Part shown: piece by piece, positions 1,362 through 40,829 of the stretch
How the letters are laid out: each line of letters starts with the position of its first letter
Position numbering within the stretch: the stretch's first letter is position 1
Source: a virus
Lineage: Duplodnaviria > Heunggongvirae > Uroviricota > Caudoviricetes
Virus record (IMG/VR): IMGVR_UViG_3300024333_000003
Strand: one strand, 5' to 3'
DNA length: 64,000 bases
Notes under the pieces: model-generated
What the model saw: only the letters and a program-made list of their open reading frames with translations
Databases searched by the model: none
Told to the model about the DNA's origin: nothing
Program-made: the position numbers and the translations under genes

Positions 1362-2378
1362 ATGGTACATTTTATAAAAACCACAGGGAAAGAATTCGAT
1401 GAGGCATTAACTTTTCTAAAGACTTTGAAAGTAATAAACGTAGATACAGAGACTACAGGCATTGATGCCATACGTGATAAAATATTGTTAATACAAATGG
1501 GAAATATGTATCAACAATATGTCTTTGATGTCGCACGTTTACATGATAGCATCCAGTTATTACGCCCCTTCTTTGAGAGTCAAAGCATAACGAAAATAAT
1601 GCATAACGCAAAATTTGATTATAAATTCCTAAAAAGAGACCTGGGTATAGAAACAGAAAATATATTTGATACTATGTTAGCCGAACAATTGTTACAAAAA
1701 GGGCGAAAAATGTCCGGGTTCGGATTAGATGTAGTAAGTGAAAAATATACCGGTGTTTTGTTAAATAAAACAGTACGCCAGACGTTTCAAAATATGTCTT
1801 ACGGGGATGCAATAAGTACCCCACAAGTTGAATATGCGGCAGGTGATATAAAGCATTTGGCAGCAATAATGGACGCCCAACAAAAACTTATAATTAGAGA
1901 TAATTTGCAACAGGTTATAAATACTGAGATGGGTGTTATTATGGCTACTGGTGATATGGAATTAAATGGTATGAAAATAGACCGTACCAAATGGCTAGCA
2001 GCTGAAGCTGTGGCAAAACGTGAAAGAACTGTTGCCTTAGATAAGTTAGATAAAATGCTGATACCGTATATCGAAAATGACATTTTTGGAAGACCTATTA
2101 TTAATTATAACAGCCCAAAACAGTTACTTAACGTGCTACAAACGGCTGTCGACAAAAATATCACAACGACTCGTGAAGGGGAATTGAAAGAAATTAGTCA
2201 TCCCATTATCGATGCGTTGTTATATTATCGTGGAATGGAAAAACGTGTAACTACTTATGGTGAAGCGTTTTTAAAAAATATACACGAACTAACTGGATTA
2301 ATACATACTGAATTTAATCAAGCCGAAACTGATACCGGCAGGTATAGCAGTAAAAACCCTAAAATATTGGGGGTTTAA
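1362..2378 (+). CDS. polA: Family-A DNA polymerase, 5' part (3'-5' exonuclease domain plus N-terminal polymerase). It ends inside motif A at TGRYSSKNP, so the exon probably ends at nt 2360.
   Basis: Exo motifs (VDTETTG, YAAGD). The C-terminus TGRYSSKNP matches the start of the PolI motif TGRLSSSDPNLQNIP. The ORF terminates 4 codons into the intervening sequence. Confidence 0.8.
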   Translation: MVHFIKTTGKEFDEALTFLKTLKVINVDTETTGIDAIRDKILLIQMGNMYQQYVFDVARLHDSIQLLRPFFESQSITKIMHNAKFDYKFLKRDLGIETENIFDTMLAEQLLQKGRKMSGFGLDVVSEKYTGVLLNKTVRQTFQNMSYGDAISTPQVEYAAGDIKHLAAIMDAQQKLIIRDNLQQVINTEMGVIMATGDMELNGMKIDRTKWLAAEAVAKRERTVALDKLDKMLIPYIENDIFGRPIINYNSPKQLLNVLQTAVDKNITTTREGELKEISHPIIDALLYYRGMEKRVTTYGEAFLKNIHELTGLIHTEFNQAETDTGRYSSKNPKILGV

Positions 2379-2633
2379 TGAAAATTAAACAAAAAGGTGC
2401 TAATTCGAGGAAACGCTCAAAGAGCCAATCTCGAGCTAAACTTAAGAAGATTGTTTTATCTTTGTGGAAATCTAAACACCGACTTAAGAAACGTGTAACG
2501 ACTAGTCGAAAGACGTAGCGATAAGTATCGCGAAATACACCTCACATTTGTGATGAAATAGTCTGATCTATATAGTAATATATAGCTGGAAAATATTCCG
2601 GAGGTAATTTAACGCATTACCTCGAACAAAATG
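2361..2633 (+). other. Putative self-splicing group I intron (~273 nt, no ORF) interrupting polA between ...KNP and NLQNIP...
   Basis: The 5' exon ends in U (cct) and the intervening sequence ends in G. An internal guide GGGGUU (2370-2375) can pair with the exon end AACCCU (P1). An R-like element AACGACUAGUC (2497-2507) and S-like AAAUAGUCUGA (2556-2566) give a P7 pairing GACUA/UAGUC. Joining the two parts restores the conserved TGR.SS..PNLQNIP motif. Confidence 0.6.
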
Positions 2634-3431
2634 AACTTACAAAATATACCTGTAAAAGATACATCGCTATACCGTGAAGCATTTGTTGCTCACACGGACG
2701 AAGATTTGTTAGTAGATGCTGACTACTCAAATATGGAATTGCGAATTCTCGCAGACCTTTCAAAAGAACCTAAATGGATGGAAATTTTTGAAAAGAATTT
2801 AGATATGCACTGCGAAATTGGTTCCGTAGTTATGGGAAAACCTATACGACTAAAAGGTACTAATGGGCCCGACGACCCAGGTGAAAATCTTGAATTACGC
2901 AAAATTGTAAAATCGCTTAATTTCGGAATTTCATATGGAATGGGGGCACAAAAACTCGCGAGAGAAGCAAAAATACCTTTTGCGGAGGCCCGACAAATAA
3001 TTAATAGTTATTGGGCTAGTTTCCCAAACGTCAAAAACTTCTTTGACGCATATGTTGCGAAGTGCATAACTAATAGATGTGTGCGTTCGCCATATGATAA
3101 TAGATTGCGCTGGCTAGAAGGATTCGATTTCGATTCCAATAAAGAGCGCGCTCGCGTGCGTAATATGACAATGAATTTTCCGATGCAGTCGGGAAATGCT
3201 AGTATAACAAAAATTGCTCTTACACACATACGCGAAGAAATAAAAAAAAGTAAATCAACTGCAAAGATTATTTGCACAATTCATGATGAGATTATACTAA
3301 ACGTGAAAAAATCTCAGGCTGAAGAAGCCGAAGCTATGCTTCGAAAATGCATGTTAGAAGCAGGTGAGCTTTACGTAAAAAACGTAAAAATAAAAGTTGA
3401 ATCATGCATAGCCCCCTATTGGAAGAAATAA
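2631..3431 (+). CDS. polA: Family-A DNA polymerase, 3' part (polymerase palm/fingers). The spliced exon probably starts at 2634.
   Basis: NLQNIP at the N-terminus. O-helix/motif B RKIVKSLNFGISYGMG. Motif C HDEIIL. Confidence 0.8.
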   Translation: MNLQNIPVKDTSLYREAFVAHTDEDLLVDADYSNMELRILADLSKEPKWMEIFEKNLDMHCEIGSVVMGKPIRLKGTNGPDDPGENLELRKIVKSLNFGISYGMGAQKLAREAKIPFAEARQIINSYWASFPNVKNFFDAYVAKCITNRCVRSPYDNRLRWLEGFDFDSNKERARVRNMTMNFPMQSGNASITKIALTHIREEIKKSKSTAKIICTIHDEIILNVKKSQAEEAEAMLRKCMLEAGELYVKNVKIKVESCIAPYWKK

Positions 3432-4808: not shown

Positions 4809-6452
4809 TTAGAATATCAAATCGATCTTAATATAATTTACTGGATATGGTGGTAATATTGTTATACTTACCAACACAGTATCCCTGCTTACAGTATCCT
4901 GTGCAACAGATGCTACAACAAAATCATTCAAAATTCCATCACGTATTAACAAGCTACCGGCGCCCTTTATCGCGATTGTAATCATATCTAATGTAGCACG
5001 ATTAATTACATATCTACCAATAAATGGCTCTACGGCACTACGTACAAATTTCGCTGTATAATCTACAGTTTTTGTAATACTTACTTCACGTTTTTCTATC
5101 GAACTCATGTCGGTCGATAACTGATGACGACATACGATAGGAGACGTGAGTTTTGATTGCTTCAAAATATAAGTTCCGCCTTGTGCGATTGTATTTAATT
5201 GTGCTTCAGTGAAATAATCGGAACTATATTTTAGTGAATTAATGTTTGCTAACGAAAGGTTCGTCATTGGTTGTTGTGGTGTATTTCCCGCAATCATGCC
5301 TGCTACTGCTGGCACACCTATTACTGAAATAGGTACTGGTACATAAGCATAAAAGAACACATCACCAGTTTCCATAGCATGCGCTCTTAATGCCAACCAT
5401 AGTGCTTCAGTTATTTCTACACCAAGTCCAGCAACTGGACGAACTGTGTAATTTCGGTAAGCTGTTTGTGAATTGGTGGCACTAAATGTTACTAATTGAT
5501 CGATGTATGCATTTACAGTTACACTATAACCGCTCGTATATAAATCACTAATATACTGGGGTCTCAATGTTGAGATATGTCTTAGTTCTCTTATAAATGC
5601 TACATCAGGGAAAACGTAAATAACGCGTTTTGCGCCTACGCCGGCCGACATTGCAGAATAAGCGGTCGCAGTAGCTGCTTTTGATGCACCCCAAGGAATC
5701 TTAGGCCCACCAAACACTATTCGCTCTTTCTTAGCTGTCGATAACGACATAGCGTTTACATGTGTTTTATAATTTGCAATAATTGCTGTATCATAAGTTA
5801 ATGGCGCTAACGCGTACACTTCTTTTGCTTCTAAATCTGTCATAGCCAACGTGTGACTTGCTGAGGCAGTTGCAATACCTGACACATTACAAGTAATAGA
5901 TGCAAAATCGTCAACAACAGTTCCGTATGCATATGTAGCTGCGTTACCGTTATTCAAAGTCTCGACCAACGCAAATCCCAACGGATTCAGCGCCGATACA
6001 TCTGTCATTTCATCTACAACGGCTTGTAAAGATTCATATAATTCTACCGACATCAGATCTGAACGTAATGCGCGATAACCGATAAACACAGAGGCGCCAT
6101 TCCAATCAGCATTAGCCGGAACGGTCACTGTGCCGGCATTCGCATCTATCGTCAGTCCACTTGCTATAATAAGACGAGATCCCACTGGATTGGTCACTGT
6201 ACCAGTAGCTTTCATAACTAGATCAACATAGACTGACGTCGAATCTAAAGCCATTCCTGCTTCAAAACCATGCAATGTATAAGTTGTCTGTGAGCCATCA
6301 AATACAGCATAATCACTGTCTTTGGTTGAATCTAATGCTTCTACATGGTACGCTGGGCCAATAACAGCCGGTACTAAATCTGGCTGAATTAGTGTTGGAG
6401 AAACTGTCTTTTGAATTTGATTTACCTCTACTTGAGGCGGATTATATGCCAT
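4809..6452 (-). CDS. putative contractile tail sheath-like protein
   Basis: 547 aa with Thr/Ser/Ala/Val-rich composition typical of sheath proteins, followed by a ~220-aa tube-sized gene. No motif-level proof. Confidence 0.35.
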   Translation of the reverse strand: MAYNPPQVEVNQIQKTVSPTLIQPDLVPAVIGPAYHVEALDSTKDSDYAVFDGSQTTYTLHGFEAGMALDSTSVYVDLVMKATGTVTNPVGSRLIIASGLTIDANAGTVTVPANADWNGASVFIGYRALRSDLMSVELYESLQAVVDEMTDVSALNPLGFALVETLNNGNAATYAYGTVVDDFASITCNVSGIATASASHTLAMTDLEAKEVYALAPLTYDTAIIANYKTHVNAMSLSTAKKERIVFGGPKIPWGASKAATATAYSAMSAGVGAKRVIYVFPDVAFIRELRHISTLRPQYISDLYTSGYSVTVNAYIDQLVTFSATNSQTAYRNYTVRPVAGLGVEITEALWLALRAHAMETGDVFFYAYVPVPISVIGVPAVAGMIAGNTPQQPMTNLSLANINSLKYSSDYFTEAQLNTIAQGGTYILKQSKLTSPIVCRHQLSTDMSSIEKREVSITKTVDYTAKFVRSAVEPFIGRYVINRATLDMITIAIKGAGSLLIRDGILNDFVVASVAQDTVSRDTVLVSITILPPYPVNYIKIDLIF

Positions 6453-6457: not shown

Positions 6458-7348
6458 TTAACTTTCTGGATTAATTAATGTTTTTGGTACATCATATGCT
6501 AGCATCTTCGCACCCATGATTGGACTAGCTAGTCCCCAGCCTAATGCTGTAGAGGTGCCTTTAAATAATTTTTTATGTAATGGTGCTGGACTTCCATCCG
6601 GATTTGTAGTCGTCGCACCCTCGAGTACACCAAAACCTATGCCTGATCCCATCCCGGCACCAAGCGCTTTACCTAACAACGAACGGCGATAACGATAACC
6701 ATCTTTTATATAATGCATGGACTCATTTGCTTCACGTCCTAAAACTTTCATTGTACGTGTTGCGACATTTCCTTTTATTCCCAATTCAGCGGCAGTCGCC
6801 GGATCTGCAATGGCCATTCCACCACGAAATGCATTACCAATTGCGCGTGTAACCGCAGATCCTTGTGGGACACTCATTTGTTGTATCGGAGCTTTTTTCG
6901 TAAATGATAACATCGGTCTATTTAGAGGACCATCTATTTTTTTAGTTGGTATTGGTCTTAAATGTTCCGGAGTTGCCCAATTTTGAGAAATATATTTTGC
7001 TGCTCCACGAACACTATCCTTTATTGTACCGCCTTCGGTTGCTAATTGCTTTAGATTATTACCTAACCCCAATATTCTTGCCGAATCCGCGCCACCTGCA
7101 CCAAATCCTGCATATGTTTTCCCGCCAAAATATCCGGCTAGCCCGCCTGCGGTCGCTCCTACTAGAAACCCTTTTGATTTTTCCCCTTCAGGCGCCTGAC
7201 TAGCGCCAAGTATTCCACCACCCAAAGCTCCGGCGGTGGAACCAACCGCTTTTGCAGTAATAGGATTAATTGCCTTTGAACTCAGATTTATTAATCTGGG
7301 GGCTATCTTACCAAAAAGTGCTGCTAAAGGATTTGCTTCTTTTATCAT
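6458..7348 (-). CDS. Gly-rich hypothetical virion protein
   Basis: Repeated GGxxG / Gly-zipper stretches (GGGILGASQAP, GATAGGLAGYFGG). Confidence 0.3.
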   Translation of the reverse strand: MIKEANPLAALFGKIAPRLINLSSKAINPITAKAVGSTAGALGGGILGASQAPEGEKSKGFLVGATAGGLAGYFGGKTYAGFGAGGADSARILGLGNNLKQLATEGGTIKDSVRGAAKYISQNWATPEHLRPIPTKKIDGPLNRPMLSFTKKAPIQQMSVPQGSAVTRAIGNAFRGGMAIADPATAAELGIKGNVATRTMKVLGREANESMHYIKDGYRYRRSLLGKALGAGMGSGIGFGVLEGATTTNPDGSPAPLHKKLFKGTSTALGWGLASPIMGAKMLAYDVPKTLINPES

Positions 7349-8172
7349 GTAATTTCTGTGGTTGTAGTGAATTCAATGTAATGCAATAATGTATCATACA
7401 TATATGGTGCACCGCTTAATGTAAACAACCTATCTATACCATTACCTGGGCCTAACTCTTCCGTTTTTTCTTGTAATGTAATACCATCTAAAAATCTTGC
7501 ATAAACTGTTAACCCTGATACTAATGGACGTGTGAACCAAATATATTGGCCAGATACAGTATACGTTGCATAATCTGCAACTTCATCATATCCGATGATC
7601 GATTGTAAGTAAGCAGTGCCAAACCCGCCTGTATAAATTCTTATATCGTAATTACCCGCTACAGTAGCTATGACACTTTGTTTCGAATAATATACTGTGA
7701 CTGGAACTACTACTGCGCGACCAATTACATCTAATCGAATTAACGATTCTTCGCCCATTTGTATATCTAACAATTGATGAATTTCATTCTTTCGAAAATC
7801 ATCTTTGTAAGCTACTAAGGCATTAAAAAGAACATCTGCAACTAAATTTGCCTCAATACCATTAGGCGAGATACATTGATAAGTCACAGATCCAACTACC
7901 AAATCGGATCTAACTTTTGTTTTGTTATCAATGCCAAGACCAGGAAACGCCTCGCGTTGATCGATGGAAGTGCGTGCCCAACGTTTAGTATTTTCGGTTA
8001 ATATTATTGCTGGATACTTTTCATTGGTGCCGGCTACAGCCGAAAATTTATCGCCTATGAAAATACCTGTTAATTTAGGATTTACGTTCCAAGTATACTT
8101 ATTTGGCACGTCCCTAAAATAATGTTGCGCAAAAGATAAAAATGTACGTTTAATGTTTAGAGATAGACTCAT
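7345..8172 (-). CDS. hypothetical structural protein
   Basis: ORF in the structural operon. Confidence 0.3.
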   Translation of the reverse strand: MSLSLNIKRTFLSFAQHYFRDVPNKYTWNVNPKLTGIFIGDKFSAVAGTNEKYPAIILTENTKRWARTSIDQREAFPGLGIDNKTKVRSDLVVGSVTYQCISPNGIEANLVADVLFNALVAYKDDFRKNEIHQLLDIQMGEESLIRLDVIGRAVVVPVTVYYSKQSVIATVAGNYDIRIYTGGFGTAYLQSIIGYDEVADYATYTVSGQYIWFTRPLVSGLTVYARFLDGITLQEKTEELGPGNGIDRLFTLSGAPYMYDTLLHYIEFTTTTEIT

Positions 8173-8318: not shown

Positions 8319-8346
8319 TATTACGTATTATTCTGCTGATTGTCAA
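8319..8346 (-). promoter_or_regulatory. sigma-70-like promoter (TTGACA-16-TAATAT) reading leftward into the 8172 to 4123 operon
   Basis: Minus strand reads ccTATTGACAatcagcagaataatacgTAATAT. Confidence 0.4.
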
Positions 8347-8536
8347 TAGGCACTAAAAGCATATGAAAATCCTTATCCACTTGATCAACTAACGCTTTCA
8401 CTTTTGGACTATCTTCCTCGTATATATCTAATTCCAATCTCCACACATGTGTAGATTTCATGCGTTTGATGCCTACGATATTAATTTTTATAGTTTTGTC
8501 TTGAATAGTTTCTTCAGATTCTTCCGTTGATTCCAT
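8321..8536 (-). CDS. hypothetical small acidic protein
   Basis: 71-aa ORF. Confidence 0.25.
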   Translation of the reverse strand: MESTEESEETIQDKTIKINIVGIKRMKSTHVWRLELDIYEEDSPKVKALVDQVDKDFHMLLVPIDNQQNNT

Positions 8537-10521
8537 AATCCCATACTTAATCCAGTGGCTAGGTCGATACCTATACCAGTGGCTATTCCTTTTCCAATAT
8601 TTTTATTAAACTCATTTTTCGATGAGGTGGCTGCAGTTACCGCAGTACCAATTACAGGGCCAGCAACCAATGATGGTAACAAATATTCTTTTGTCATATG
8701 TTTCCAATCTATTCCGCCCGTCTTTGGCATATTTGCCAAATTATCACCCAGAATCGGTATACTATCTTCGGTTTGCATTTGTTGTGGATCGTCCGGCGGT
8801 ATACGCATTTCCTTTAATCTGGCTATGTTTAATTGCGCATCTGGTCTTGTTGGTTTAAATTTCAGTTTAATTAATCCAGTCTTAGTAAATGCTGGATGAT
8901 AATTACTCATAGAATCTCCTAATACAGGCATTGGTGCAGATGTATCGTTTAATGTAGCTGTCTGAACAGTCTTTAAACCTTTATGTATTTTTGGATCCGG
9001 TGCTTTTTTGTGAAACGGTTCAAGTAATGCAGCTTGTTTGCGTCTTGGCCAAGTTTCACTTCTAATGTCTTTGTATACAGGCATACGAAGTGCACCACTT
9101 GGTAATTTCTCCTGCGCCAGCACACGCGCTACCTGTCCTACATATTTATTTGGAAGTTCAAACATTTCTTTTCTCATTTGATCTGTGAATCCACTACCAA
9201 CCCGACCAATTTCCTCTTTACCATTGTATGAATAAGTAAATCCACCAGCAGCTTTATTTTTATATTTTCCTTCCCCCGGAAATACCGACATTATACGTAC
9301 ATCATAATCTTTGAATAATTTTGCCTTCAATGGTACCGACTTATTTAAATCATATACTACAACGCCCTCTTGTGTTAACGGATGGTTGCCAGAACGTATT
9401 TCATCTAGTAATACTTGTTTTTCATTTATAGTCGTCGCTAGCGGCGGCATTTTTAATTCTGGTATTTCTTTTGAAATATTTTTTAGTATCTCGAGTTTTT
9501 CACTATATGGATGACTACTTACATCTTTACCTTGATAACGAACCACATCAAAAACTACATGATCAAGCGGCGCGTTTTCTTGGAGTTCTCTTGAACGCCA
9601 TACATTTGACAATAATCTAGCTGCAGTGTCTCTTGATGATAAAACATTACCAGATGTTCTATCTTTTGCAAATAGTTCTCCTAATAATACTGTTTTGCCT
9701 GGCATACTCTCCGGAACTATTGCAGTATGAAGTCCAGTACGAAACGTATGATTAATTAACTTTGCAGGTCCTTTCTTGCTTGGACGATAAGAGTATATTT
9801 CAATAGGCATTCCACGTCTAAGCAAAAACGCATTCATTGCTCCATCATACTTCGGTGCTAATATCTCGGTCGACTTTGTTACATCGATGGATTCAGGCTT
9901 TATACTTTGAAATTTAGGTTTCGAAATGTTAACTTCTGGTCGAGTATCTCGCGTAGGTGTAGAGTTCATAAACAGCCAATCATCCCCACCAGTATGTATT
10001 AAAGTATATTTTTCAGTGTCGCCATTAGACTTATACACATTAAAAGATACATGATCAGGTGTACTTTTAGTAACTTCAACCTTATCCGCTGAGAATAACT
10101 TTACTGTTCCAGCGCCGTAACCTGATTTGATTTCACCAGACCATGCCGAGTACTCTGCAGTATGATCAGGTTGATGCACAGCAAGAACTTTTTCGCCTGG
10201 AAACTTAGGTAAGTTACGAGCGGCCCAACTATGTGCAATTCCGGTACGTGGATCAACAAGTCGTAAATCGAAATGTTCTCCAGCCTTATGCGCTTTATGC
10301 TGTTGCACATTAAAGTGCCAATTTTCTGGTGTAGAGAATTCGCGTGGACGTGTTTTTACGTCCCGATCAGGAATACCTAAAGCACCTGCTTTTCCTTTAT
10401 GCTTAAAATATTCAACCTGTTGAAGTCTATGTACAGCCGCTGAACGTGATGAATACGGCCCGCCCAAATTCTTGCCTTTTTCGGACAATACGTGCCAACC
10501 GTCTTTTCTATGTACTATCAT
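8488..10521 (-). CDS. LigD-type 3'-phosphoesterase (PE) domain fused to an ATP-dependent polynucleotide ligase, with a C-terminal Gly-zipper/hydrophobic tail
   Basis: N-terminus EHFDLRLV...AHSWAARNLP...YGAGTVKLFSADK matches the LigD PE signature (H.D.RLE...SWAVPKGP...YGAG). Ligase motif I KYDG in APKYDGAMNAF. Motif IV EGVVVYDL. C-terminus VAGPVIGTAVTAA...GIATGIGIDLATGLSMGLW. Confidence 0.75.
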   Translation of the reverse strand: MIVHRKDGWHVLSEKGKNLGGPYSSRSAAVHRLQQVEYFKHKGKAGALGIPDRDVKTRPREFSTPENWHFNVQQHKAHKAGEHFDLRLVDPRTGIAHSWAARNLPKFPGEKVLAVHQPDHTAEYSAWSGEIKSGYGAGTVKLFSADKVEVTKSTPDHVSFNVYKSNGDTEKYTLIHTGGDDWLFMNSTPTRDTRPEVNISKPKFQSIKPESIDVTKSTEILAPKYDGAMNAFLLRRGMPIEIYSYRPSKKGPAKLINHTFRTGLHTAIVPESMPGKTVLLGELFAKDRTSGNVLSSRDTAARLLSNVWRSRELQENAPLDHVVFDVVRYQGKDVSSHPYSEKLEILKNISKEIPELKMPPLATTINEKQVLLDEIRSGNHPLTQEGVVVYDLNKSVPLKAKLFKDYDVRIMSVFPGEGKYKNKAAGGFTYSYNGKEEIGRVGSGFTDQMRKEMFELPNKYVGQVARVLAQEKLPSGALRMPVYKDIRSETWPRRKQAALLEPFHKKAPDPKIHKGLKTVQTATLNDTSAPMPVLGDSMSNYHPAFTKTGLIKLKFKPTRPDAQLNIARLKEMRIPPDDPQQMQTEDSIPILGDNLANMPKTGGIDWKHMTKEYLLPSLVAGPVIGTAVTAATSSKNEFNKNIGKGIATGIGIDLATGLSMGLWNQRKNLKKLFKTKL

Positions 10522-10540: not shown

Positions 10541-11566
10541 TTACGACCGGCGCAATACGTTTCTCCAATAAATTAAAAGATCCTTATTTATATCATCAAG
10601 ACCTTTTGTTGGTTTCCATCCAGTAGCTTGCATAAATTTAGTACAATCGGGTATTTGTAGTGTAATATCAGTAGGCCTGATTAATGCTAAATCTATTTCT
10701 ATTTTGAAATCAGTTGGTTGTATATAACTTTTAGATATTAAATCATTTAATGCTTCACCGACAGTACATGTGTGATTGCCACCTATATTATAAACTTCGC
10801 CGACTGTACATTTATTGGCGGCTAACCAATAAGCATGTACAGCATCGTCTATATGAGCATAAGTGCGCACAGAATTAAGATTTCCCACACGAATTATATA
10901 TTTTGAATTTCCATAAGAGCGATTATTTATATCTTGTCTATACTGCATTTCGCCTTGTACAATTTGATATGCAAAACTAGATAATGCAAATTTCCTTCCC
11001 CGGCGTGCACCTTCGTGACTAAACATCCTGGTAGTTATTATTTTTAATCCAAATGCTTTATGATAATACTGTGACATCAGATCGTGTCCGACTTTTGATA
11101 TACTATATGGATTTGCCGCTCTAATTGGGTTAGTTTCTTTTATAGGCACTTCTGAAGGATCCGGCATACCATATACTTCGCTGGAACTAACACTTACTAT
11201 AATCGGATCTATACGGCCATCTAATACCGCAAGATGTATTTCATCTAATAAATTGGCAGTTCCAATGATATTTGTTTGTAAAGTATGTATCGGATAAATA
11301 AAACTCGTTTCAGGAAAACTCTGGGCGGCAAAATGCCAAATAATATCTGGTTTTGCTTTTCGCAATAACAAACTTAGACTGCCACGATCCATCAGATCCG
11401 CCTCTATGAAATTGACTCGCGGATTACCGTACAAATGTACTATATTCTCGTCACGACTGCGCCAACGTCTAGAAGCGTAAATCATGCCATCAGTATTAGC
11501 TAATAAATAATCAATCATATGTGAACCAACAAATCCAGTGGCACCGGTTATAAGATAATTAGGCAT
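10541..11566 (-). CDS. NDP-sugar 4,6-dehydratase (GDP-mannose/dTDP-glucose dehydratase family)
   Basis: GATGFVGSHMIDYL Rossmann motif. KETNPIRAANPYSISKVGHDLM matches the dehydratase TxxPxxPxSPYxxSK motif. Confidence 0.75.
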   Translation of the reverse strand: MPNYLITGATGFVGSHMIDYLLANTDGMIYASRRWRSRDENIVHLYGNPRVNFIEADLMDRGSLSLLLRKAKPDIIWHFAAQSFPETSFIYPIHTLQTNIIGTANLLDEIHLAVLDGRIDPIIVSVSSSEVYGMPDPSEVPIKETNPIRAANPYSISKVGHDLMSQYYHKAFGLKIITTRMFSHEGARRGRKFALSSFAYQIVQGEMQYRQDINNRSYGNSKYIIRVGNLNSVRTYAHIDDAVHAYWLAANKCTVGEVYNIGGNHTCTVGEALNDLISKSYIQPTDFKIEIDLALIRPTDITLQIPDCTKFMQATGWKPTKGLDDINKDLLIYWRNVLRRS

Positions 11567-12068
11567 TTCTATCCCTTTCTGATATAATAATGTTCTCTTT
11601 TGCTATCGGCCAGTAAATTCCTAGATAAGGATTAAATGGAGCTATAGTAAACTGCGACGCACGTTCATAATATGTAGTCTGCTTATAACTATACACGATA
11701 ATGTCCGTCATAGCTAGCAGACTATTGCCGAATCCTGGCGGCACTAATAACTGATAACGATTTTTGTCATTTAGTGTAAATGCTTGCCATTGATAATATG
11801 TTTTAGACTCTTTGTTATTATCAATAATAACAACGTATATACTGCCGTACACACATTGTACCAATTTCCATGTTTTAAAATCACCGTGGAATCCTCGAAG
11901 GACATGCTTGTATGAAATTGAAATATCATCTTGTATAAATTCATCTGGTACATTTAATGCTTTGTAGTTCTCTTTGTTGAAGGTCTCTAAGTATTCGCCA
12001 CGAAAATCATAGAATACCTCTGGTATAATTAATTTTGCTTTTTCAAATTTAGTGTCTATTATCTTCAT
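11559..12068 (-). CDS. RmlC-like cupin (dTDP-4-dehydrorhamnose 3,5-epimerase family)
   Basis: 169-aa cupin-like protein (FHGDFKTWKLVQCVYGSIYVVIID) located in a sugar cluster. Confidence 0.6.
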   Translation of the reverse strand: MKIIDTKFEKAKLIIPEVFYDFRGEYLETFNKENYKALNVPDEFIQDDISISYKHVLRGFHGDFKTWKLVQCVYGSIYVVIIDNNKESKTYYQWQAFTLNDKNRYQLLVPPGFGNSLLAMTDIIVYSYKQTTYYERASQFTIAPFNPYLGIYWPIAKENIIISERDRNA

Positions 12069-13047
12069 TAAAATAATTCTTTCTCTTTAAATACTCTTCT
12101 TTGTTTGCTAAAAACCATTTCCACGTATGTTCTAATCCATCGCGTAATGTAGTGATAGGTTCAAAGTTTATTAACATACGCGCTTTCGTTATATCCATAA
12201 CGCGTTTTGGAAATCCGTTTGATTTTGTTGTATCCCATTCATGATTGAAATCAATAAACTCATGTAGTGTATCAACTAAATTTTTTATTGTATAATCCTT
12301 GCCACTGCCCAAATTAATATAATTTACATCTGGCATATAATGCATTGCTTGTATAATACCCTCAGCTACATCTACATTATAAGCAAAGTCACGAATTGCT
12401 GAACCATCCCCCCATATTTTTACAGGGTTCTCGCCCGAAGCAATACGATACATCAACGAAGGCACAACCATTGCATTATTTGGATCGAAGTTATCTCCAG
12501 GACCATAGACATTACAAGGACGCAATACGACAAAATTTTTAATACCGTATTGTTCTTTATAAGCCTGTATTTGTAACTCAGCCATGCGCTTTGCCCAACC
12601 TGGATACATATCCATCGGTAGCCCTTGCGTTATACCGTCTTCGTGAAATATTTCAGCACTTTCGTATGCGCCAATAGAACTAGTGAAGGCGACTTTTTTT
12701 ACGTTATTAATACGACATGCTTCAAGTATGTTTGTATTAAATTGTAACAAGGGCACAAAAAAACTAGCTGGTTTCGTTTTTGTAACTTCAATCGATCCTT
12801 TGATACCCGCCAAATGAAATACATAATCCATTCCTTTAGTTATAAACTCTGCGGCATTGAAATATCGTAGATCCAAATATACATATTCTGCTAATCGATT
12901 TGGCTGAAGATCGTCTAATGATACCACAGTAACGATGGCGCCGGCGTTAACTAAAATATCAACAACAGGACGACCTATTAATCCTGTGCCGCCTATTACC
13001 AAAACTTTCTTTCCTCTAAATTCATCGTATTCTGATTGTCTCAACAT
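12049..13047 (-). CDS. NAD-dependent sugar epimerase/reductase. The start is trimmed to the internal Met; the track ORF extends to 13128.
   Basis: KKVLVIGGTGLIGRPVVD Rossmann motif. TAATG overlap with the upstream SDR gene at 13047. Confidence 0.65.
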   Translation of the reverse strand: MLRQSEYDEFRGKKVLVIGGTGLIGRPVVDILVNAGAIVTVVSLDDLQPNRLAEYVYLDLRYFNAAEFITKGMDYVFHLAGIKGSIEVTKTKPASFFVPLLQFNTNILEACRINNVKKVAFTSSIGAYESAEIFHEDGITQGLPMDMYPGWAKRMAELQIQAYKEQYGIKNFVVLRPCNVYGPGDNFDPNNAMVVPSLMYRIASGENPVKIWGDGSAIRDFAYNVDVAEGIIQAMHYMPDVNYINLGSGKDYTIKNLVDTLHEFIDFNHEWDTTKSNGFPKRVMDITKARMLINFEPITTLRDGLEHTWKWFLANKEEYLKRKNYFNEDNRH

Positions 13048-13778
13048 TAAAAACTCCTGCTTTCTCCGCCATCTGCGGTTATACATGCTCCATTTATTAA
13101 ACTCGCCTCTTCCGAACATAAGAAGCAAACCAAAGCGGCAACTTCTTCCGGCGTTCCCATACGCCCTAACGGTAATGTTTCCTCGAATGTACTTCTTTCT
13201 TCCGGCGTTAATTTATCCCATCCCGTCCCAGGAATTGCTATCGCACCAGGACATACCGTATTAAATGTAATATTATGTCGAACCAGTTCTTTTCGTATCG
13301 CTAACGATTTCATTAACGCAATCTCAGCTGCTTTTGCTACAGTGAACCACGGACGTCCTCCGGATTCCTTACCATAGATGGACGAAATAGTAACAACGCG
13401 GCCAAAATTATTTTGTTTCATCCACGGCAACGCGGCCAGGGTTAACTGTCGTGCCGTTTCATAATTTTTTAATATCACACCATCCCAAGATTCTTCGGGA
13501 GTTGTTAAAACATCATCTGTACCCCAACGCCCTCCACCTCCTACATTATTTATAAGAATGTCGATATGTAGATTCTTTATCTGTTCAGCAACTTTTCCTA
13601 TATCTACTGTGTTCGTAAAATCGGCTTGTATACCTTCATATACATAGGAATGAGCTAAATCATCTACATGTCGAGCAGCTATATAAATATGTTCGTTACG
13701 GTCGTCGATAGCAAATCTGTTAGCGATGGCCCATCCGATACCATGCGTTCCGCCAGTTATTAGTACATTCATCTCCAA
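13047..13778 (-). CDS. short-chain dehydrogenase/reductase (SDR)
   Basis: LITGGTHGIGWAIANRFA TGxxxGxG motif. SIYGKE...YTVAKAA YxxxK motif. Confidence 0.7.
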   Translation of the reverse strand: MEMNVLITGGTHGIGWAIANRFAIDDRNEHIYIAARHVDDLAHSYVYEGIQADFTNTVDIGKVAEQIKNLHIDILINNVGGGGRWGTDDVLTTPEESWDGVILKNYETARQLTLAALPWMKQNNFGRVVTISSIYGKESGGRPWFTVAKAAEIALMKSLAIRKELVRHNITFNTVCPGAIAIPGTGWDKLTPEERSTFEETLPLGRMGTPEEVAALVCFLCSEEASLINGACITADGGESRSF

Positions 13779-14473
13779 TTCACCTTTCTTAAATGATATT
13801 TAGATGCATTTACATCTCTAGGTATACAGTACAATAGCCCACGATAAGTTTTCTGTGGGGCTGACCATATGAATTTTAACGTATCTCTCATTTCATCGTC
13901 AAGCAACAACGGATCCATTTTACCATCTATGAAGTCTTTCTCGGTTACTATATCGCAGGCTTCTTTATAATTGGTATAAAAAGAAAATCGCGGATTTATC
14001 TTCAAAAGGTTATCACGCACTATCTCAAAATCCAAAGGTATGCCGTCATATGTAATATGGCCTAATCCGTTTCTAGTATCAAAATCATGTATTATAATGA
14101 TACAGTTATTGGATGGGGCCATTGATGCTAATTCTTGTTTTACAACAAAACGTAATTCTTTAGGTAGACTGGGATCGTAAAAATGAGCATCCAAATAATA
14201 AATGAGCGGTTCATTTAATGTTGTAGATATATATTTTAAGAATTTTGAACTATCCATGTGGAAAATTTTTATATTATGTTTATTTATAGTTCTTAACACA
14301 ACATCAGTATAAAAATCCTCAATGATTTCACATGAATAAGCGTGTTTAAAATAACGCGCCGCTATTTGTATTCCTTGTCCTCGAAATGTGCCTGTTTCTA
14401 TATATGTTTCTACTTTAAATTCCCTTGCTAACCCCTTAATTGTATTCACGGCACCATGATCAGTCCACGACAT
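13769..14473 (-). CDS. putative SAM-dependent O-methyltransferase (TylF/MycF, macrocin-O-MTase-like)
   Basis: YIETGTFRGQG resembles the TylF-family E.G.(F/Y)RG.S motif. Confidence 0.5.
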   Translation of the reverse strand: MSWTDHGAVNTIKGLAREFKVETYIETGTFRGQGIQIAARYFKHAYSCEIIEDFYTDVVLRTINKHNIKIFHMDSSKFLKYISTTLNEPLIYYLDAHFYDPSLPKELRFVVKQELASMAPSNNCIIIIHDFDTRNGLGHITYDGIPLDFEIVRDNLLKINPRFSFYTNYKEACDIVTEKDFIDGKMDPLLLDDEMRDTLKFIWSAPQKTYRGLLYCIPRDVNASKYHLRKVNWR

Positions 14474-15371
14474 TATTACTCTCCACTTTCTTTAAAAATT
14501 TATTATTGATATAAATACGATCTCCCGCTATATTACAATATTCATCTTCAAACGCATAAACATTTAATTTCTTGTCCAACCCATGTTGTAATAAAAGCGA
14601 TGCTACAATAGAGGCTAATCCACCTATTTTTGAATGTTCCTCATATACTATTAATTCTTGATATGGTTTTATGGCTTTCAGAAATTCACCCTCATCTAAT
14701 GGTTTTAATCGCTCTACACAAATGCATCCAGCCTCCGGAAAAGTATCCAATGCTTCGTGCGTTAAAGTGCCATAAGTTAAAACGGCCCGAGTTCTTCCTT
14801 GCCTCAAAACATGAACATAATTATTGGAAGTTATTGCTGGTAAGTCTGGATAAATTCCTTTGTCAAGTCGAATATACCGAGGTGTCGTTGAGTTCTTGAG
14901 AATATGTACCGAATTCCTCATACTACTTTCATCAAAAGGTACAAAAATTTCAATATTAGGTAATGTATTCAAGATTCCTATGTCTTGTGGTATATGATGT
15001 GTTAATCCATCATAACTATAACTCATCCCACCACCGATGCCTATTAACGTAACAGGTAACTTCATAGCACATAGATTTACTTTTATCTGTTCTAAGGCAC
15101 GTTGAATAAGAAATGCGGCAATAGTGTATACATATATTCTCTTACCTTCCATTGCCATGCCGGCAGCAACGTTTATGAGATTCTGTTCTGATATACCAAC
15201 ATTGACAAATTGTTTTGGATATTTTGCTTTAAATTTGTCTAATTCGGTAGCACCCATGTCGGCTGATAATATAAATACATCTTTAGATGTATCTGCCAAT
15301 AATATTAATTCATTAAAAATAGCATCACGCAAGTCCATATGATAATTCCTCCAATGCAGAAATTGTATCAC
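14460..15371 (-). CDS. transketolase, C-terminal (pyrimidine-binding) subunit of a split transketolase
   Basis: FVNVGISEQNLINVAAGMA. Confidence 0.75.
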   Translation of the reverse strand: MIQFLHWRNYHMDLRDAIFNELILLADTSKDVFILSADMGATELDKFKAKYPKQFVNVGISEQNLINVAAGMAMEGKRIYVYTIAAFLIQRALEQIKVNLCAMKLPVTLIGIGGGMSYSYDGLTHHIPQDIGILNTLPNIEIFVPFDESSMRNSVHILKNSTTPRYIRLDKGIYPDLPAITSNNYVHVLRQGRTRAVLTYGTLTHEALDTFPEAGCICVERLKPLDEGEFLKAIKPYQELIVYEEHSKIGGLASIVASLLLQHGLDKKLNVYAFEDEYCNIAGDRIYINNKFLKKVESNNVVD

Positions 15372-16104
15372 CCTTATTTGGTAATCCGTGGTGACTTGTT
15401 ACATTATTCTCCATAAAGGATATTCCTTTACCTTTTACTGTACGAGCTATATAAACTGTCGGTGTTACTATAGATGCATTTTTATAGGCTTCTATCAAAT
15501 GCAAAATATTGTGTCCATCCACAACATACGACATCCATCCAAATGCCGACCATATTTTCATTAACTGTCTATATGTGGTGTTTTTATCCACAGCATCGGT
15601 GGACTGAAATCCATTGCAATCAACAATGACTCGTAAATTTGTTAGGGCATGAACAGCTGCAAAACGTACGGCTTCCCACACTGACCCCTCATTGCACTCG
15701 CCATCTCCCATTAATACAAAAACATTGTCCGGAGTATTATTAAGTTTTTTGGCAAAAGCTATTCCTGCGCCAATACCAAGTCCATTACCTAACGATCCTG
15801 TTATAGTTATGATTCCAGGAATATGATTGTTAGGATGCTCTGATAACAAACTACCATTTTTGCAGAATGTATGTAATTCGGTGTTAGATATAATGTTACG
15901 TTCCGCAAGTACAGTATATAAAGCAATCCCAGAATGGCCTTTACTTAAAATAAATTTAGTATCATTTGTAACAATATCGCCATAATATAACGACACTAAT
16001 ATGTCCATGCATGACAACGCACCGCCAAGATGACCGCGACCAGCCCTTACCGCAGTCTCAAACATTTTCTTACGTAATTGTTTAGCCTTTAAATTCAGAT
16101 CCAT
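15325..16104 (-). CDS. transketolase, N-terminal (ThDP-binding) subunit of a split transketolase
   Basis: GHLGGALSCMDILVSLYY. ThDP motif GDGECNEGSVWEA. Confidence 0.8.
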   Translation of the reverse strand: MDLNLKAKQLRKKMFETAVRAGRGHLGGALSCMDILVSLYYGDIVTNDTKFILSKGHSGIALYTVLAERNIISNTELHTFCKNGSLLSEHPNNHIPGIITITGSLGNGLGIGAGIAFAKKLNNTPDNVFVLMGDGECNEGSVWEAVRFAAVHALTNLRVIVDCNGFQSTDAVDKNTTYRQLMKIWSAFGWMSYVVDGHNILHLIEAYKNASIVTPTVYIARTVKGKGISFMENNVTSHHGLPNKGDTISALEELSYGLA

Positions 16105-17035
16105 ACCATTTCATTGTTTTAAAAATACCCTGTGAAAATGTATGTAGCGGCTTCCATCCATAGTCAACTAATGCTTTATTATTATCTAACGCTAGAATAG
16201 TTGGAATCGCGGGTTTAGAAGTGTCATATGTTATTTTTAAATCCTTGCCTGATTGCACTATAATACTTTCAACCATTTCTTTTACAGTTATAGCTTTGCC
16301 ATAAGACACATTCACTAAATCGTATGGTTTATGTTGTAAGTTAATAGCCAAATCAATAAAATGTACTACATCGTCGACATAGATCAAATCGCGTGCTGTA
16401 TCAGTGCCATTACCCCACACCGTAATCGTGTCTCCGTACTCCGCATCCATTACTTTTCTAACCGTGGCGCCGAATACATGTGAGTGCTCATAATCATATT
16501 TATCTTGTGGTCCAAAAGTATTCGAATGTCGTATAACCATATGTTTAGTACGACCTAATCTTGAATAAAATTCACACATTTTTTCGATATATACCTTAGT
16601 CCACCCGACACCAAAATAAGCCGGTACTATTTTATCCGATTCATCATAGTCCGTTTCTTTTCTCGGCGTGTCCCCAGGTTGATACATCACCCCACAACTC
16701 AGGAATATAAACTGCGGTACACTGTGTTCATAAGCCGCACGTAATAACAATGAGTTCATTACAGCATTGTCAGTTACATGTATGTAAGGTTTTGTTGTTA
16801 TATCTTTCGATCCAGATGTTGTTGCGGCTGCTTGAATTATTACATCATATGGGCCATAACTCATCACATGATCTACGCCTTTTTGCGTTGTTAGATCGCA
16901 CGATAATAATTTTATATTATCAGGACAATTTGCTTTAGTATGAGCAACGCCCACTACTTCGTAATCGTGTCTAAAATAATACGAAATATTATACCCCATA
17001 AATCCTGTGCAACCACAAACTAATATTTTTTTCAT
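16082..17035 (-). CDS. NAD-dependent epimerase/dehydratase family protein
   Basis: MKKILVCGCTGFMGYNISYYF Rossmann N-terminus. Confidence 0.7.
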   Translation of the reverse strand: MKKILVCGCTGFMGYNISYYFRHDYEVVGVAHTKANCPDNIKLLSCDLTTQKGVDHVMSYGPYDVIIQAAATTSGSKDITTKPYIHVTDNAVMNSLLLRAAYEHSVPQFIFLSCGVMYQPGDTPRKETDYDESDKIVPAYFGVGWTKVYIEKMCEFYSRLGRTKHMVIRHSNTFGPQDKYDYEHSHVFGATVRKVMDAEYGDTITVWGNGTDTARDLIYVDDVVHFIDLAINLQHKPYDLVNVSYGKAITVKEMVESIIVQSGKDLKITYDTSKPAIPTILALDNNKALVDYGWKPLHTFSQGIFKTMKWYGSEFKG

Positions 17036-17745
17036 GTCCAGCTTCCTTTTTGCCCCTGTGATATTGTTAATAGATCATTATCCTTATAATGATCTACTGG
17101 TTTCTTTCTTTTCTGTTTCCCATATTCCCCATAAAGAAAATTTAAATACATACGATCTGCCGCACCATAATTATTTAACAATTGATGTGGCTGTGTTTCA
17201 TATGCAGCGATATCCCACAAAATTTGCACAAGTCCGCCTAATTCATAAAGACGTAATGCTCGATCCAGGTCCCAATATAATCCTATAAAATTAGTATCAA
17301 GCCCTCCGATTTCATCCGATGTTTCTCTAGATAAGAATCCATTTAAGGGCACTAACGGACTAGTCATAACATTCATATTGTAATGTTGTATACTCTCAAT
17401 ACTTATAAGATCTGCGGAGGCATATCTACCCGAAAACATTGTTTTTTTATTCGGTGCTTTTTCCCACGCGTCTACAAATCTAGCTAACATATCGTCAGGA
17501 TAACACATATCATCAGCCGTATTCATTATAAATCGACCGGTGCAGGCTCGTCTGGTAATCTCAATTGCCTGTGCGGGTTTAACCGACGTATGAATGTGTT
17601 TAAAATTATCGGGTAAAGTATATGATGGTATGTTAGGACCAGCAAATATCATTTCAAAGGAAACGCCTGCCTTGCGAAAATTCTCGTATAACTCAAGCCA
17701 AATATTAGTACGTATTGCCGCACCAAAAATACTTACCTCGATCAT
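17032..17745 (-). CDS. hypothetical protein (sugar cluster)
   Basis: ORF tightly packed with its neighbours. Confidence 0.3.
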   Translation of the reverse strand: MIEVSIFGAAIRTNIWLELYENFRKAGVSFEMIFAGPNIPSYTLPDNFKHIHTSVKPAQAIEITRRACTGRFIMNTADDMCYPDDMLARFVDAWEKAPNKKTMFSGRYASADLISIESIQHYNMNVMTSPLVPLNGFLSRETSDEIGGLDTNFIGLYWDLDRALRLYELGGLVQILWDIAAYETQPHQLLNNYGAADRMYLNFLYGEYGKQKRKKPVDHYKDNDLLTISQGQKGSWT

Positions 17746-18302
17746 GCCTCCACCTTATGATATAGATCACCGTATTCAATTAATATTGTAGACTTACCAT
17801 CTTCTCGGGTATATGCAATATAATAAGCATATAATATATCATACTTACTTTTTAATTGGACAACCTCAATTTCTCCGCGACATAATAACTTCAATGCCTC
17901 AGTATGATCCTGACAATGTTGAGGACCAGGATATAGCGGCTCGATAGCGCCGACGCTAGTTCGTATTATAATTTTAGGTTTATACCCGCCTTCGGATACT
18001 TTACGTATATTTGCCAAATGGTTAGTTATTTGATTCGCAGCTATGATTAAAAAGTCGGCTCTTGGATAAATACTGATTGGAACTATTCCTTCCAAGGCCA
18101 TACCAATACTAAGCCCCATCTGGAAATCTTCGAATACTGGTAATTCAATACGTTTTTCCATTGGCACATCTACTAAACTTTTAAATAAGGCATGACCGTC
18201 CCACACCACTGATTGTCCGATAAACTTTGTATTTGATTGTTCGCCCAAATACTTCATTGCTCGCTTTAATTCATCAAAATAGTCCATTAGAAATGTATCC
18301 AT
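17742..18302 (-). CDS. ThDP-enzyme beta subunit-like (E1-beta / transketolase pyrimidine-binding domain only)
   Basis: LPVFEDFQMGLSIGMALEG...ADFLIIAANQI resembles E1-beta/TK Pyr domains. Too short to carry the C-terminal domain. Confidence 0.55.
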   Translation of the reverse strand: MDTFLMDYFDELKRAMKYLGEQSNTKFIGQSVVWDGHALFKSLVDVPMEKRIELPVFEDFQMGLSIGMALEGIVPISIYPRADFLIIAANQITNHLANIRKVSEGGYKPKIIIRTSVGAIEPLYPGPQHCQDHTEALKLLCRGEIEVVQLKSKYDILYAYYIAYTREDGKSTILIEYGDLYHKVEA

Positions 18303-40346: not shown

Positions 40347-40829
40347 ATGAACTTATTATTTTTAGACATTGACGGTGTATTAATTAACGCACGTGGTTGT
40401 ATTGCGCACGATCTACATGATATTGGACAACCGAGTCGTGCAACAGATGTTAATTTTGATCCGACATCAGTAAAATTGCTTCAGCGGGTGTGTGAAATAT
40501 GCGACTTAAAAATATTCATACACAGTACGTGGTGGCATGACGGTATATACGACACTGAATATTTTGTTGCTGCGTTAGAGAAATATGGGTGGGCAAATGC
40601 TCCGGTTATTGGCGGTATCGATGTACGTGGGCGCAAAAATCGCGTCAATTATGGACTGCTAACATTTCAACCAGAAAGATGGATTATCTTGGATGATGCC
40701 TGTATGAAAGAAGAGTATGGTAGTAATATGCTTTGTATAAATCCAATGGAAGGCATAACATTTGCTGATTATGCATATATACTTACATACTTTGGCAAAG
40801 CCGATAAAATAGGTTGTTTCTTCTTTTAA
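40347..40829 (+). CDS. HAD-superfamily phosphatase-like protein
   Basis: Motif I LFLDIDGVL (DxDG). Motif III-like IILDD. Confidence 0.5.
   Translation: MNLLFLDIDGVLINARGCIAHDLHDIGQPSRATDVNFDPTSVKLLQRVCEICDLKIFIHSTWWHDGIYDTEYFVAALEKYGWANAPVIGGIDVRGRKNRVNYGLLTFQPERWIILDDACMKEEYGSNMLCINPMEGITFADYAYILTYFGKADKIGCFFF

Follow-up and report, generated by a model that had tools for sequence, protein, structure and literature searches.

A 64,000-nucleotide (nt) stretch of the IMG/VR virus record IMGVR_UViG_3300024333_000003, analysed at its full length and called the window below, raises the question of what a phage would do with a protein that joins a 3'-phosphoesterase (PE) of the LigD type to an ATP-dependent DNA ligase. 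The gene in question, here termed the PE-ligase, encodes 677 amino acids (aa); a sequence-only reading of the same DNA had described it as such a fusion with a glycine-zipper (Gly-zipper) tail and had proposed an end-healing and sealing repair enzyme. Judged from its sequence, the element that carries the gene is a jumbo myovirus of an uncultivated lineage. On the domain identities, conserved active sites, modularity, synteny and phage context computed here, we consider it probable that the gene encodes a bifunctional enzyme that heals and seals DNA 3' ends in maintaining the phage's own DNA.

Domains and catalytic centres of the PE-ligase

Three Pfam families match the protein above their cut-offs: LigD_N (PF13298, the PE family; aa 73-150, expectation value (E) 1.7e-10, 41.4 bits against a cut-off of 31.1), DNA_ligase_A_M (PF01068; aa 218-374, 28.4 bits against 26.2) and DNA_ligase_OB_2 (PF14743; aa 415-487, 30.6 bits against 28). 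The best full-length family match for the PE region is NF007210, the mycobacterial-type LigD (96 bits, E 1.3e-27), and NCBIfam TIGR02777 (LigD_PE_dom) matches with E 5.7e-12, under its full-domain cut-off. A sequence search of the PDB returned the PE of Candidatus Korarchaeum (CkoPE, 3P4H, E 2.5e-9) and that of Methanosarcina barkeri (MbaPE, 3P43, E 8e-8), together with the PE of Pseudomonas LigD (3N9B/2LJ6). For the ligase half the best match is PHROG 114, a family of ATP-dependent DNA ligases (E 2.5e-25). The motifs quoted in the sequence-only reading (the PE signature, KYDG and EGVVV) are all present, as EHFDLRL at aa 82-88, SWA at 98-100, YGAG at 135-138, KYDG at 224-227 and EGVVV at 385-389. 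Its central proposal, a PE fused to an ATP-dependent ligase in a phage, thus stands: the Pfam thresholds are passed, the PE homology is recovered by profile search, and both active sites are intact and conserved. The profile matches confirm a predicted LigD-type 3'-phosphoesterase followed by a predicted ATP-dependent DNA ligase made of a nucleotidyltransferase (NTase) and an OB domain. Profile searches of the protein found no POL/PrimPol domain (Pfam, NCBIfam), no kinase, HAD or RNA_ligase domain (Pfam, NCBIfam, PHROG) and none of the hallmark domains of polyvalent proteins (MuF, zincin metallopeptidase, SNF2 plus methylase, ART; Pfam).

The structural model agrees with this assignment. An AlphaFold2 (AF2) model built from 97 sequences has a mean predicted local distance difference test score (pLDDT) of 81.5, with aa 1-45 and 61-490 modelled confidently, and BLAST of the window protein against its homologues delimits aa 47-490 as the conserved unit. 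When the model was compared with the PDB by Foldseek, the 50 matches listed were all DNA ligases, with no RNA ligase among them; they include archaeal ligases, those of T4, human Lig1, LigE, Chlorella virus and, in 37th place, the LigD of Mycobacterium tuberculosis (Mtb). Many of these DNA ligases match with E-values of 1e-11 to 1e-15, and the alignments to three-domain ligases extend over 330-400 columns. The matches listed from BFVD are viral DNA ligases and a few mRNA capping enzymes, again with no RNA ligase, and the top ones, from phages, have alignments of ~300-340 columns.

The six residues essential for PE activity are known from mutants and crystal structures of CkoPE and MbaPE: two histidines and an aspartate on the metal, an arginine and a histidine on the phosphate, and a tyrosine (PMC3082917). 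In the window protein, His75, His83, Asp85 and Arg87 align residue by residue with CkoPE His9, His15, Asp17 and Arg19 (HMMER), and in the same alignment His120 and Tyr124, which lie in a conserved DH..Y segment, match CkoPE His51 and Tyr55 by position. The ligase motifs are equally recognisable, with motif I as K224-Y-D-G, motif III around G281-E282, motif IV as E385-G386 and motif V as K399/K401. We scored conservation on the aligned cores of 119 homologues, which are 40-71% identical to the window protein over the core. The catalytic hexad of the PE is kept in 117-119 of the 119; on the ligase side K224, D226, E385, G386 and K401 are invariant, K399 is conserved in at least 90%, and R479, in a motif VI-like position, is present in 108. 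Both catalytic centres are therefore under purifying selection, which for the PE argues against a mere structural appendage.

An identical 677-aa protein is read on 14 contigs, which come from two different sequencing runs among others; the longest contig on record for it has 215 kb. This recurrence rules out an assembly artefact as the source of the composite protein; the architecture of N-terminal module plus core is also found in the homologues P0002, P0004 and P0023.

Accessory modules and their occurrence in relatives

Many relatives are plain PE-ligases of 440-490 aa, and about half of the family is without any accessory domain. The window protein adds three modules to this core: a mini-domain in front of the PE, and a disordered linker and a Gly-zipper module behind the ligase. 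The sequence-only reading had placed the PE signature in the N-terminal ~150 aa and the Gly-zipper segment in the C-terminal ~60 aa. A PE and a hydrophobic C-terminal module are indeed present, but the PE begins only at aa ~61, and the tail module is ~75 aa long and follows a disordered linker of ~105 aa. What that reading had missed is that aa 1-45 are separate, and that the parts of the 677-aa protein are three or four separate genes in relatives.

The first 45 residues are modelled as three strands and a helix, with pLDDT above 93 as part of the whole protein and 91.5 as an isolated sequence, so that in the model they form a separate, independently folding domain outside the PE. Their consensus is SEKGKNLGGPYxTxEEAxxRLxQVEYFK, and that of the wider family is MIVKRKDGYHVVSEKGKNLGGPYKTREEAVKRLRQVEYFKHKGK. 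The mini-domain changes position among PE-ligases: it is N-terminal in P0002, P0004 and P0023, C-terminal in P0033-P0035, a stand-alone 58-aa gene in the related locus L003 and a small separate gene near the ligase in L032. A profile made from nine copies recovered 5,411 proteins, mostly stand-alone and 43-47 aa long; the best 120 of these matches are nearly all of that length, with a few of up to 75 aa, and are 59-84% identical to the window copy. The family occurs in more than 540 species genomes of bacteria and archaea, among them Acidobacteriota (on megabase contigs), a closed chromosome of Woesebacteria (Patescibacteria), DPANN archaea including Micrarchaeota, and Bathyarchaeota, and in at least 502 IMG/VR viral contigs. 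It matched no Pfam or NCBIfam family and gave only a weak PHROG match, and the stand-alone mini-protein had no conserved neighbour in 80 cellular loci, the best neighbour cluster being present in 9 of the 80. The mini-domain is also embedded in phage proteins of 600-1,600 aa that are otherwise almost without Pfam matches (for example L122:2402-7192, L119:2051-5113, L121:926-4483 and L145:1871-4732), where one copy stands directly before a DMP19-like (DNA-mimic) domain and one directly after DUF5661. These large proteins may be of the polyvalent type. For the mini-domain itself, a role as a nucleic-acid- or partner-binding adaptor is plausible.

The linker between the OB domain and the tail is rich in proline and lysine and holds a repeated short motif (PMPVLGDSMSNY / IPILGDNLANM, P-[IV]-L-G-D-[ST]-M-x-N-like). 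The same motif is seen again in four homologues, in the tails of P0002, P0005, P0007 and P0008, and L003 has it in a 132-aa open reading frame (ORF) of its own. The AF2 model gives aa 511-627 a pLDDT below 50, and helices follow up to aa 674 at low confidence. As judged from its distribution, the tail is a rare, portable and lineage-specific module: only 18 matches were found among 1.84 billion representatives, mostly in proteins of 74-157 aa. The closest relatives have it at the C-terminus, P0015 at the N-terminus and P0014 internally, between the ligase and an SNF2 domain; in L003 it ends a separate 214-aa DUF5661 protein, and in L032 it is a stand-alone small gene. Its Kyte-Doolittle maxima over 19 residues, 1.52 and 1.15, are borderline for a transmembrane segment; the usual threshold is ~1.6, and both fall below it. 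A further resemblance, to the V-ATPase c-subunit (E 0.005), is weak and of the composition type. Membrane insertion is possible, and the membrane or virion association suggested in the sequence-only reading is unproven. Since copies of the modules elsewhere in the window would have suggested a shared targeting signal, we searched for paralogues of them, and found no significant copy of the N-terminal module, the linker or the tail in other window proteins.

Relatives of the PE-ligase are encoded by 29 viral contigs in IMG/VR. In the closer clade (at least 47% identity) the gene order is PE-ligase, small ORFs, a protein of ~280 aa, a Gly-zipper protein of ~290 aa, sheath and tube, with polA and sigma70 divergent; the synteny with the sheath is seen in L003-L005, L007, L009-L012 and L030. 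Locus L003 holds the parts of the window protein as separate genes: the 58-aa mini-domain gene directly after an SNF2 helicase gene, a 457-aa PE-ligase, the 132-aa linker-like ORF and the 214-aa DUF5661-tail protein. Between these pieces (L003:6244-8017 and 9371-10252) lie an HNH_3 ORF and two Cys-rich Vsr/DUF559-like ORFs, which we take to be homing-endonuclease insertions. The layout looks like one gene fragmented by homing endonucleases, or like the unfused ancestral state. Because its modules are separate genes in relatives, the 677-aa protein can be read as a 'Rosetta-stone' fusion of parts that travel together. Within the window, a 46-aa stretch of a 246-aa protein is 61% identical to the middle of the DUF5661-tail protein of L003, so part of that partner is present elsewhere in the window genome, without the tail.

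The recurrent partner of the PE-ligase is an ATPase of the SNF2 family, encoded next to it or fused to it in L003, L004, L005/L009/L010, L026, L029, L032 and L033 and in P0014, P0022, P0032, P0042 and P0045. Other members carry an appended 2H/LigT phosphoesterase (P0020, P0069), a Nudix domain (P0075, P0103), an AAA_33-like P-loop kinase (P0072) or a weaker P-loop kinase-like domain (P0042, P0113), and DUF5661/DUF5662, DUF4269 with a C39 peptidase, HTH domains and inteins also occur. The family's fusions are thus enriched for end-modifying enzymes, which supports a role in end chemistry. As a separate observation, ~30 distant PE-ligases (P0067, P0087, P0095 and P0100 among them) start with a conserved peptide of ~25 aa, (I/T)GGxLAALADLGLxKxAxEFAPGIP, and P0132, P0190 and P0002 have a similar stretch, SLKKLGFKKIA, behind the mini-domain; this peptide may be a docking helix.

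The phage and its gene neighbourhood

The phage context is clear, because genes for a tail sheath, a large terminase, a prohead protease and a major head protein lie in the same window (Table 1). In sheath and capsid, cultured phages come no closer than 26-36% identity, the nearest being Salmonella phage Arash, Vibrio phages D69/D148/D181 and Bacillus phage G. Phage Arash has no PE-ligase upstream of its sheath gene. A tblastn search of 50,697 phage records likewise found no PE-ligase, with matches confined to aa 263-489 at 23-36% identity.

Table 1. Positions of the PE-ligase, its modules and other features in the 64-kb window.
Feature	Position	Strand	Basis
PE-ligase, whole gene (677-aa multi-module protein, stop codon included)	8488..10521	-	ORF list, ATG start
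Portable beta-beta-beta-alpha mini-domain, aa 1-45	10387..10521	-	AF2 model, homologue comparison
LigD-type PE beta-barrel, aa ~61-190	9952..10341	-	LigD_N, TIGR02777 and 3P4H/3P43 matches
Ligase NTase domain, aa ~219-392	9346..9867	-	DNA_ligase_A_M, Foldseek; confident AF2 model
Ligase OB domain, aa ~393-490	9052..9345	-	DNA_ligase_OB_2; pLDDT >93
Disordered Pro/Lys-rich linker, aa ~491-595 (~105 aa)	8737..9051	-	AF2 model, composition
Gly-zipper helical module, aa ~596-677 (~75 aa)	8491..8736	-	PSLVAGPVIG...GKGIATGIGIDLATGLSMGLWNQRK; strongly conserved sequence
71-aa gene downstream of the ligase	8321..8536	-	ORF list; also called as a gene on the contigs; 56% identical to syntenic L003 counterpart
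275-aa protein	7345..8172	-	syntenic between PE-ligase and sheath in L003-L005, L007, L009-L012, L030
296-aa protein with Gly-zipper segments	6458..7348	-	weak Gly-zipper Pfam matches; syntenic in L003, L004, L007, L011
Tail sheath	4809..6452	-	phrog_279, E 6e-13; homologous to phage Arash gp236 and phage G sheaths
Major head protein	25138-26052		profile searches of window proteins
Prohead-protease-like protein	28276-30042		profile searches of window proteins
Large terminase, 886 aa	31993-34653	-	phrog_85 match; LAGLIDADG_3 at aa 396-461
Stand-alone HAD_SAK_2 protein	40347..40829	+	PF18143, E 1e-14, 55.5 bits against cut-off 27.5
Sigma-70-like factor	561-1361	+	
DNA polymerase A, exonuclease/N-terminal part	1362-2378	+	
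polA spacer, 252 nt	2379-2630		
DNA polymerase A, C-terminal part	2631-3431	+	
125-aa protein, conserved in L003	3697-4074	+	PF18909 dGTP_diPhyd_N
Sugar-nucleotide biosynthesis cluster, ~10 kb	~10541-21149	-	
246-aa protein	52474-53214	-	46-aa match to L003 DUF5661-tail protein
SPFH/Band-7 family protein	60861-61820	+	E 9e-20

The ligase gene is tightly packed, with a gap of 19 nt upstream and an overlap of 49 nt with the downstream 71-aa gene, its operon partner. The 275-aa protein that follows matched neither Pfam nor PHROG and, judged from its conserved place between PE-ligase and sheath, is a probable neck or tail-completion protein. Divergent from the structural-gene run lie the phage's own sigma-70-like factor, a split DNA polymerase A (~5 kb from the ligase) and a dGTP-diphosphohydrolase-like gene. 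The spacer that splits the polymerase opens with a short, very basic ORF and contains no Rfam intron; in the relatives L004 and L005 polA is a single gene of ~600 aa. The protein with the dGTP_diPhyd_N domain hints at nucleotide-pool manipulation and possibly at a modified genome.

Between the head genes and the ligase lies the sugar-nucleotide cluster, which comprises several NAD-dependent epimerases/dehydratases, a dTDP-sugar isomerase, a short-chain dehydrogenase, transketolase/E1-like TPP enzymes and a B12-binding radical SAM enzyme. Relatives hold other sets of glycosyl- or methyl-transferases at this position, and the cluster could serve DNA hypermodification or glycan decoration. The terminase probably carries an intein or homing-endonuclease insertion at its LAGLIDADG_3 match. 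The 211-aa and 105-aa ORFs beside the HAD_SAK_2 gene have no family matches. No second ligase or PE was found in the 64-kb window, which also contains no Rfam matches and no tRNA genes.

Predicted role, rival readings and known systems

The mechanism that we favour draws on the known chemistry of both domain families; the substrate, the timing, the SNF2 partnership and the adaptor roles are inferred as well. The PE beta-barrel would bind a metal through His75, His83 and Asp85 (Mn2+ in characterised PEs) and, with Arg87, His120 and Tyr124, would hydrolyse a 3'-phosphate or trim 3'-terminal ribonucleotides at a nick, gap or break to leave a 3'-OH. The ligase would then self-adenylate on Lys224 with ATP, pass the AMP to the 5'-phosphate and seal the strand. 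Most likely the substrate would be double-stranded DNA of the phage itself, at nicks or breaks whose blocked 3' ends arise from host nucleases, from apurinic/apyrimidinic (AP)-lyase or ribonucleotide processing, from replication or from recombination. In this work the PE-ligase would probably be assisted by an SNF2-type DNA translocase, which is its neighbour or fusion partner in about one third of related loci. SNF2-family ATPases translocate on double-stranded DNA, and this partner together with the DNA-ligase-type sealing module argues for DNA rather than RNA as the substrate. Late expression is likely because the gene is packed in the same-strand run of head, neck and sheath genes; one fitting role would be the cleaning of nicked concatemers before packaging, and encapsidation in phage T4 reportedly requires ligase. 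The mini-domain, linker and Gly-zipper tail would be adaptors that bind a substrate or partner and localise the enzyme, not catalytic parts. The end-healing and sealing function proposed in the sequence-only reading is thus the natural one to predict from two intact active sites, whereas the tRNA or RNA substrate that it had envisaged is not retained.

Several observations weigh against this account. BLAST of the window with two related SNF2 proteins found no gene of this family, so a PE-ligase need not have such a partner. Late expression is read from gene order, and a promoter and terminator scan around the ligase gene gave counts at the level of shuffled sequence, that is, of chance. Given the 2H, kinase and Nudix fusions and the HAD_SAK_2 gene, substrates of RNA or of mixed RNA/DNA are conceivable. 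The residues of the N-terminal peptide of Pseudomonas LigD that serve its 3'-phosphomonoesterase activity could not be mapped on the window protein, and across the family the enzymatic activities are predictions. Finally, the distant homologues (~40% identity) showed no sheath synteny at the sensitivity used.

A simpler account would make the protein a general replicative or recombinational ligase in which the PE is mainly an extra DNA-binding or clamping domain and end healing a minor side activity. It is the sole ligase detectable in the 64-kb window, the phage's own DNA polymerase A lies ~5 kb away, the PE sits N-terminal to the NTase, where three-domain ligases have their DNA-binding domain, and about half of the family are plain PE-ligases of ~450 aa. 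A purely structural role, however, would not keep all six PE residues across 119 sequences, and the recurring fusions with further enzymes that modify ends indicate a role in end chemistry. The gene moreover lies in the structural run and not in the divergent polA/sigma70 block, and with a contig of up to ~215 kb against a window of 64 kb, a second ligase may lie elsewhere. We regard this account as unlikely, although a replicative role and a heal-and-seal role are compatible and not mutually exclusive. The accessory modules and the virion-gene vicinity could instead mark a polyvalent-type effector, packaged in the virion or acting very early, that repairs defence-nuclease damage or re-circularises the entering genome. 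In its favour are the position among virion genes in closer relatives, the promiscuous architectures of the family (SNF2, 2H, Nudix, C39 peptidase, P-loop, HTH), the embedding of the mini-domain in phage proteins of 600-1,600 aa with DMP19-like and DUF5661 neighbours, and the long disordered linker with repeated motifs before a conserved hydrophobic tail. Yet hallmarks of MuF, portal or capsid targeting are missing from the window protein, the survey of polyvalent proteins (PMC5512222) lists neither PE nor DNA-ligase domains, and the cultured distant relative Arash lacks such a gene upstream of its sheath. Since the non-structural sugar cluster belongs to the same gene run, position proves little, and we hold such an effector to be distinctly unlikely.

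Repair of RNA, the use to which the sequence-only reading had leaned by analogy with T4 Pnk/Rnl, would start from ends cut by anticodon nucleases or HEPN RNases: the PE would remove their 2',3'-cyclic phosphate or 3'-phosphate, and the ligase would reseal the tRNA or RNA. PE enzymes do act on ribonucleotide-terminated 3' ends (PMC3082917), 2H/LigT domains are present in two homologues and P-loop kinase-like domains in one to three, and the phage of the window has a gene for a HAD_SAK_2 protein, whose family is named for 'Swiss Army Knife' RNA-repair proteins. That HAD gene, which had been put forward as a possible source of a complementary phosphatase activity, is real, but it lies 30 kb from the ligase on the opposite strand and is not syntenic with it, and the window holds no tRNA genes. 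The composition of the PE-ligase also speaks against RNA repair: its sealing module is an NTase and OB pair of the DNA-ligase type with no RNA ligase among the structural matches listed, it has no 5'-kinase, although one is needed after anticodon-nuclease cleavage, and its recurrent partner is an SNF2-family ATPase. The T4-like tRNA repair is accordingly regarded here as very improbable. Less probable still is a phage ligase for non-homologous end joining (NHEJ) that works with a host or phage Ku, for example in circularising the injected linear genome. The best full-length match of the PE is indeed a mycobacterial-type LigD, and the PE-LIG order is that of Pseudomonas LigD; mycobacteriophages Corndog and Omega are said to circularise their genomes with host LigD. 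But the precomputed Pfam calls contain no Ku (PF02735) within 8-10 kb in four phages, POL/PrimPol is found neither in the protein nor among the precomputed Pfam neighbours in L001 and L003-L005, and the ligase is not specifically LigD-like (TIGR02779, 26.6 bits against 227.75; TIGR02776, 18.8 against 373). We return to the bifunctional heal-and-seal enzyme as the preferred reading. A speculative extension of it, which we think rather unlikely, combines PE-ligase, SNF2 ATPase, 44-aa mini-protein and Gly-zipper module into a previously unrecognised phage 'genome-guarding' machine. Such a machine would travel with the DNA or be stationed at it, during entry or packaging, to heal and reseal the 3'-blocked nicks and breaks that host defence nucleases make.

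If the prediction is true, a widespread lineage of uncultivated jumbo phages has its own end-healing and sealing enzyme, assembled independently of bacterial LigD by joining a PE from the LigD world to a phage-type ligase, and PE enzymes extend from cellular break repair to phages. It would also suggest that the repair of 3'-blocked nicks matters for the maintenance of phage DNA or for surviving nicking defences, and a one-polypeptide 'clean and seal' ligase would be a possible reagent for damaged or ribonucleotide-terminated DNA. Through the fusions, three uncharacterised elements (44-aa mini-protein family, DUF5661, Gly-zipper module) would be tied to DNA end metabolism and become experimentally approachable. 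Should the genome-guarding extension be true as well, it would amount to a repair-based strategy of counter-defence and would give more than 5,000 unannotated mini-proteins a first functional clue, the recognition of DNA ends or nicks.

Among known systems, the closest is bacterial LigD (PE-LIG-POL in Pseudomonas aeruginosa, POL-PE-LIG in Mycobacterium tuberculosis), which shares the identical PE hexad fused to an ATP-dependent NTase and OB ligase and, in Pseudomonas and Agrobacterium, the same PE-then-LIG order. The predicted chemistry is also the same, namely removal of a 3'-phosphate or trimming of a 3'-ribonucleotide followed by sealing. Unlike LigD, the window protein has no POL domain and no Ku match within 8-10 kb; its ligase half is of the minimal phage type, with PHROG 114 as best match, and not of the LigD clade; and it is encoded by a phage among virion genes, carries three extra modules and has an SNF2 partner in relatives. 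CkoPE (3P4H) and MbaPE (3P43), the best sequence matches of the PE, share the signature of the eight-stranded barrel and the hexad, but they are single-domain proteins, whereas the window PE is covalently tied to a ligase. The minimal ATP-dependent ligases of viruses and phages (PHROG 114, T7, Chlorella virus, LigE-type) have the NTase and OB core in common with it, including DNA_ligase_OB_2, yet the ligases found in cultured phages are all without a PE. A review of DNA ligases and their architectures mentions PE modules only in connection with LigD and places most viral ligases as unclustered singletons (PMC7470946).

T4 Pnkp with Rnl1/Rnl2 and bacterial Pnkp/Hen1 follow the same logic of healing blocked ends and then sealing them. 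The window protein differs from them in using a PE barrel and not HAD as the healing fold, in lacking a 5'-kinase, in its ligase of the DNA-ligase type and not Rnl, and in its likely DNA substrate. The 2H and P-loop kinase-like domains of some members and the HAD_SAK_2 gene of the window genome are further points of likeness. Polyvalent proteins, whose archetype is P1 DarB with SNF2 and methylase (Iyer, Burroughs, Anand, de Souza and Aravind 2017, PMC5512222), resemble the PE-ligases in their promiscuous accessory domains, SNF2 partner, virion-gene vicinity and small domains shared with giant phage proteins; PE and DNA ligase are outside their published repertoire, and the window protein has no MuF, portal or metallopeptidase hallmark. 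Measured against all of these, the enzyme is not categorically new: its parts are familiar and its function is predictable from known families. We found no description of a phage PE-ligase in the literature searched, and its combination with add-on modules was absent both there and from the cultured phages searched. What is new is a predicted heal-and-seal enzyme that a phage lineage appears to have assembled independently, with portable adaptors and an SNF2 partnership, and that is conserved in uncultivated jumbo phages.

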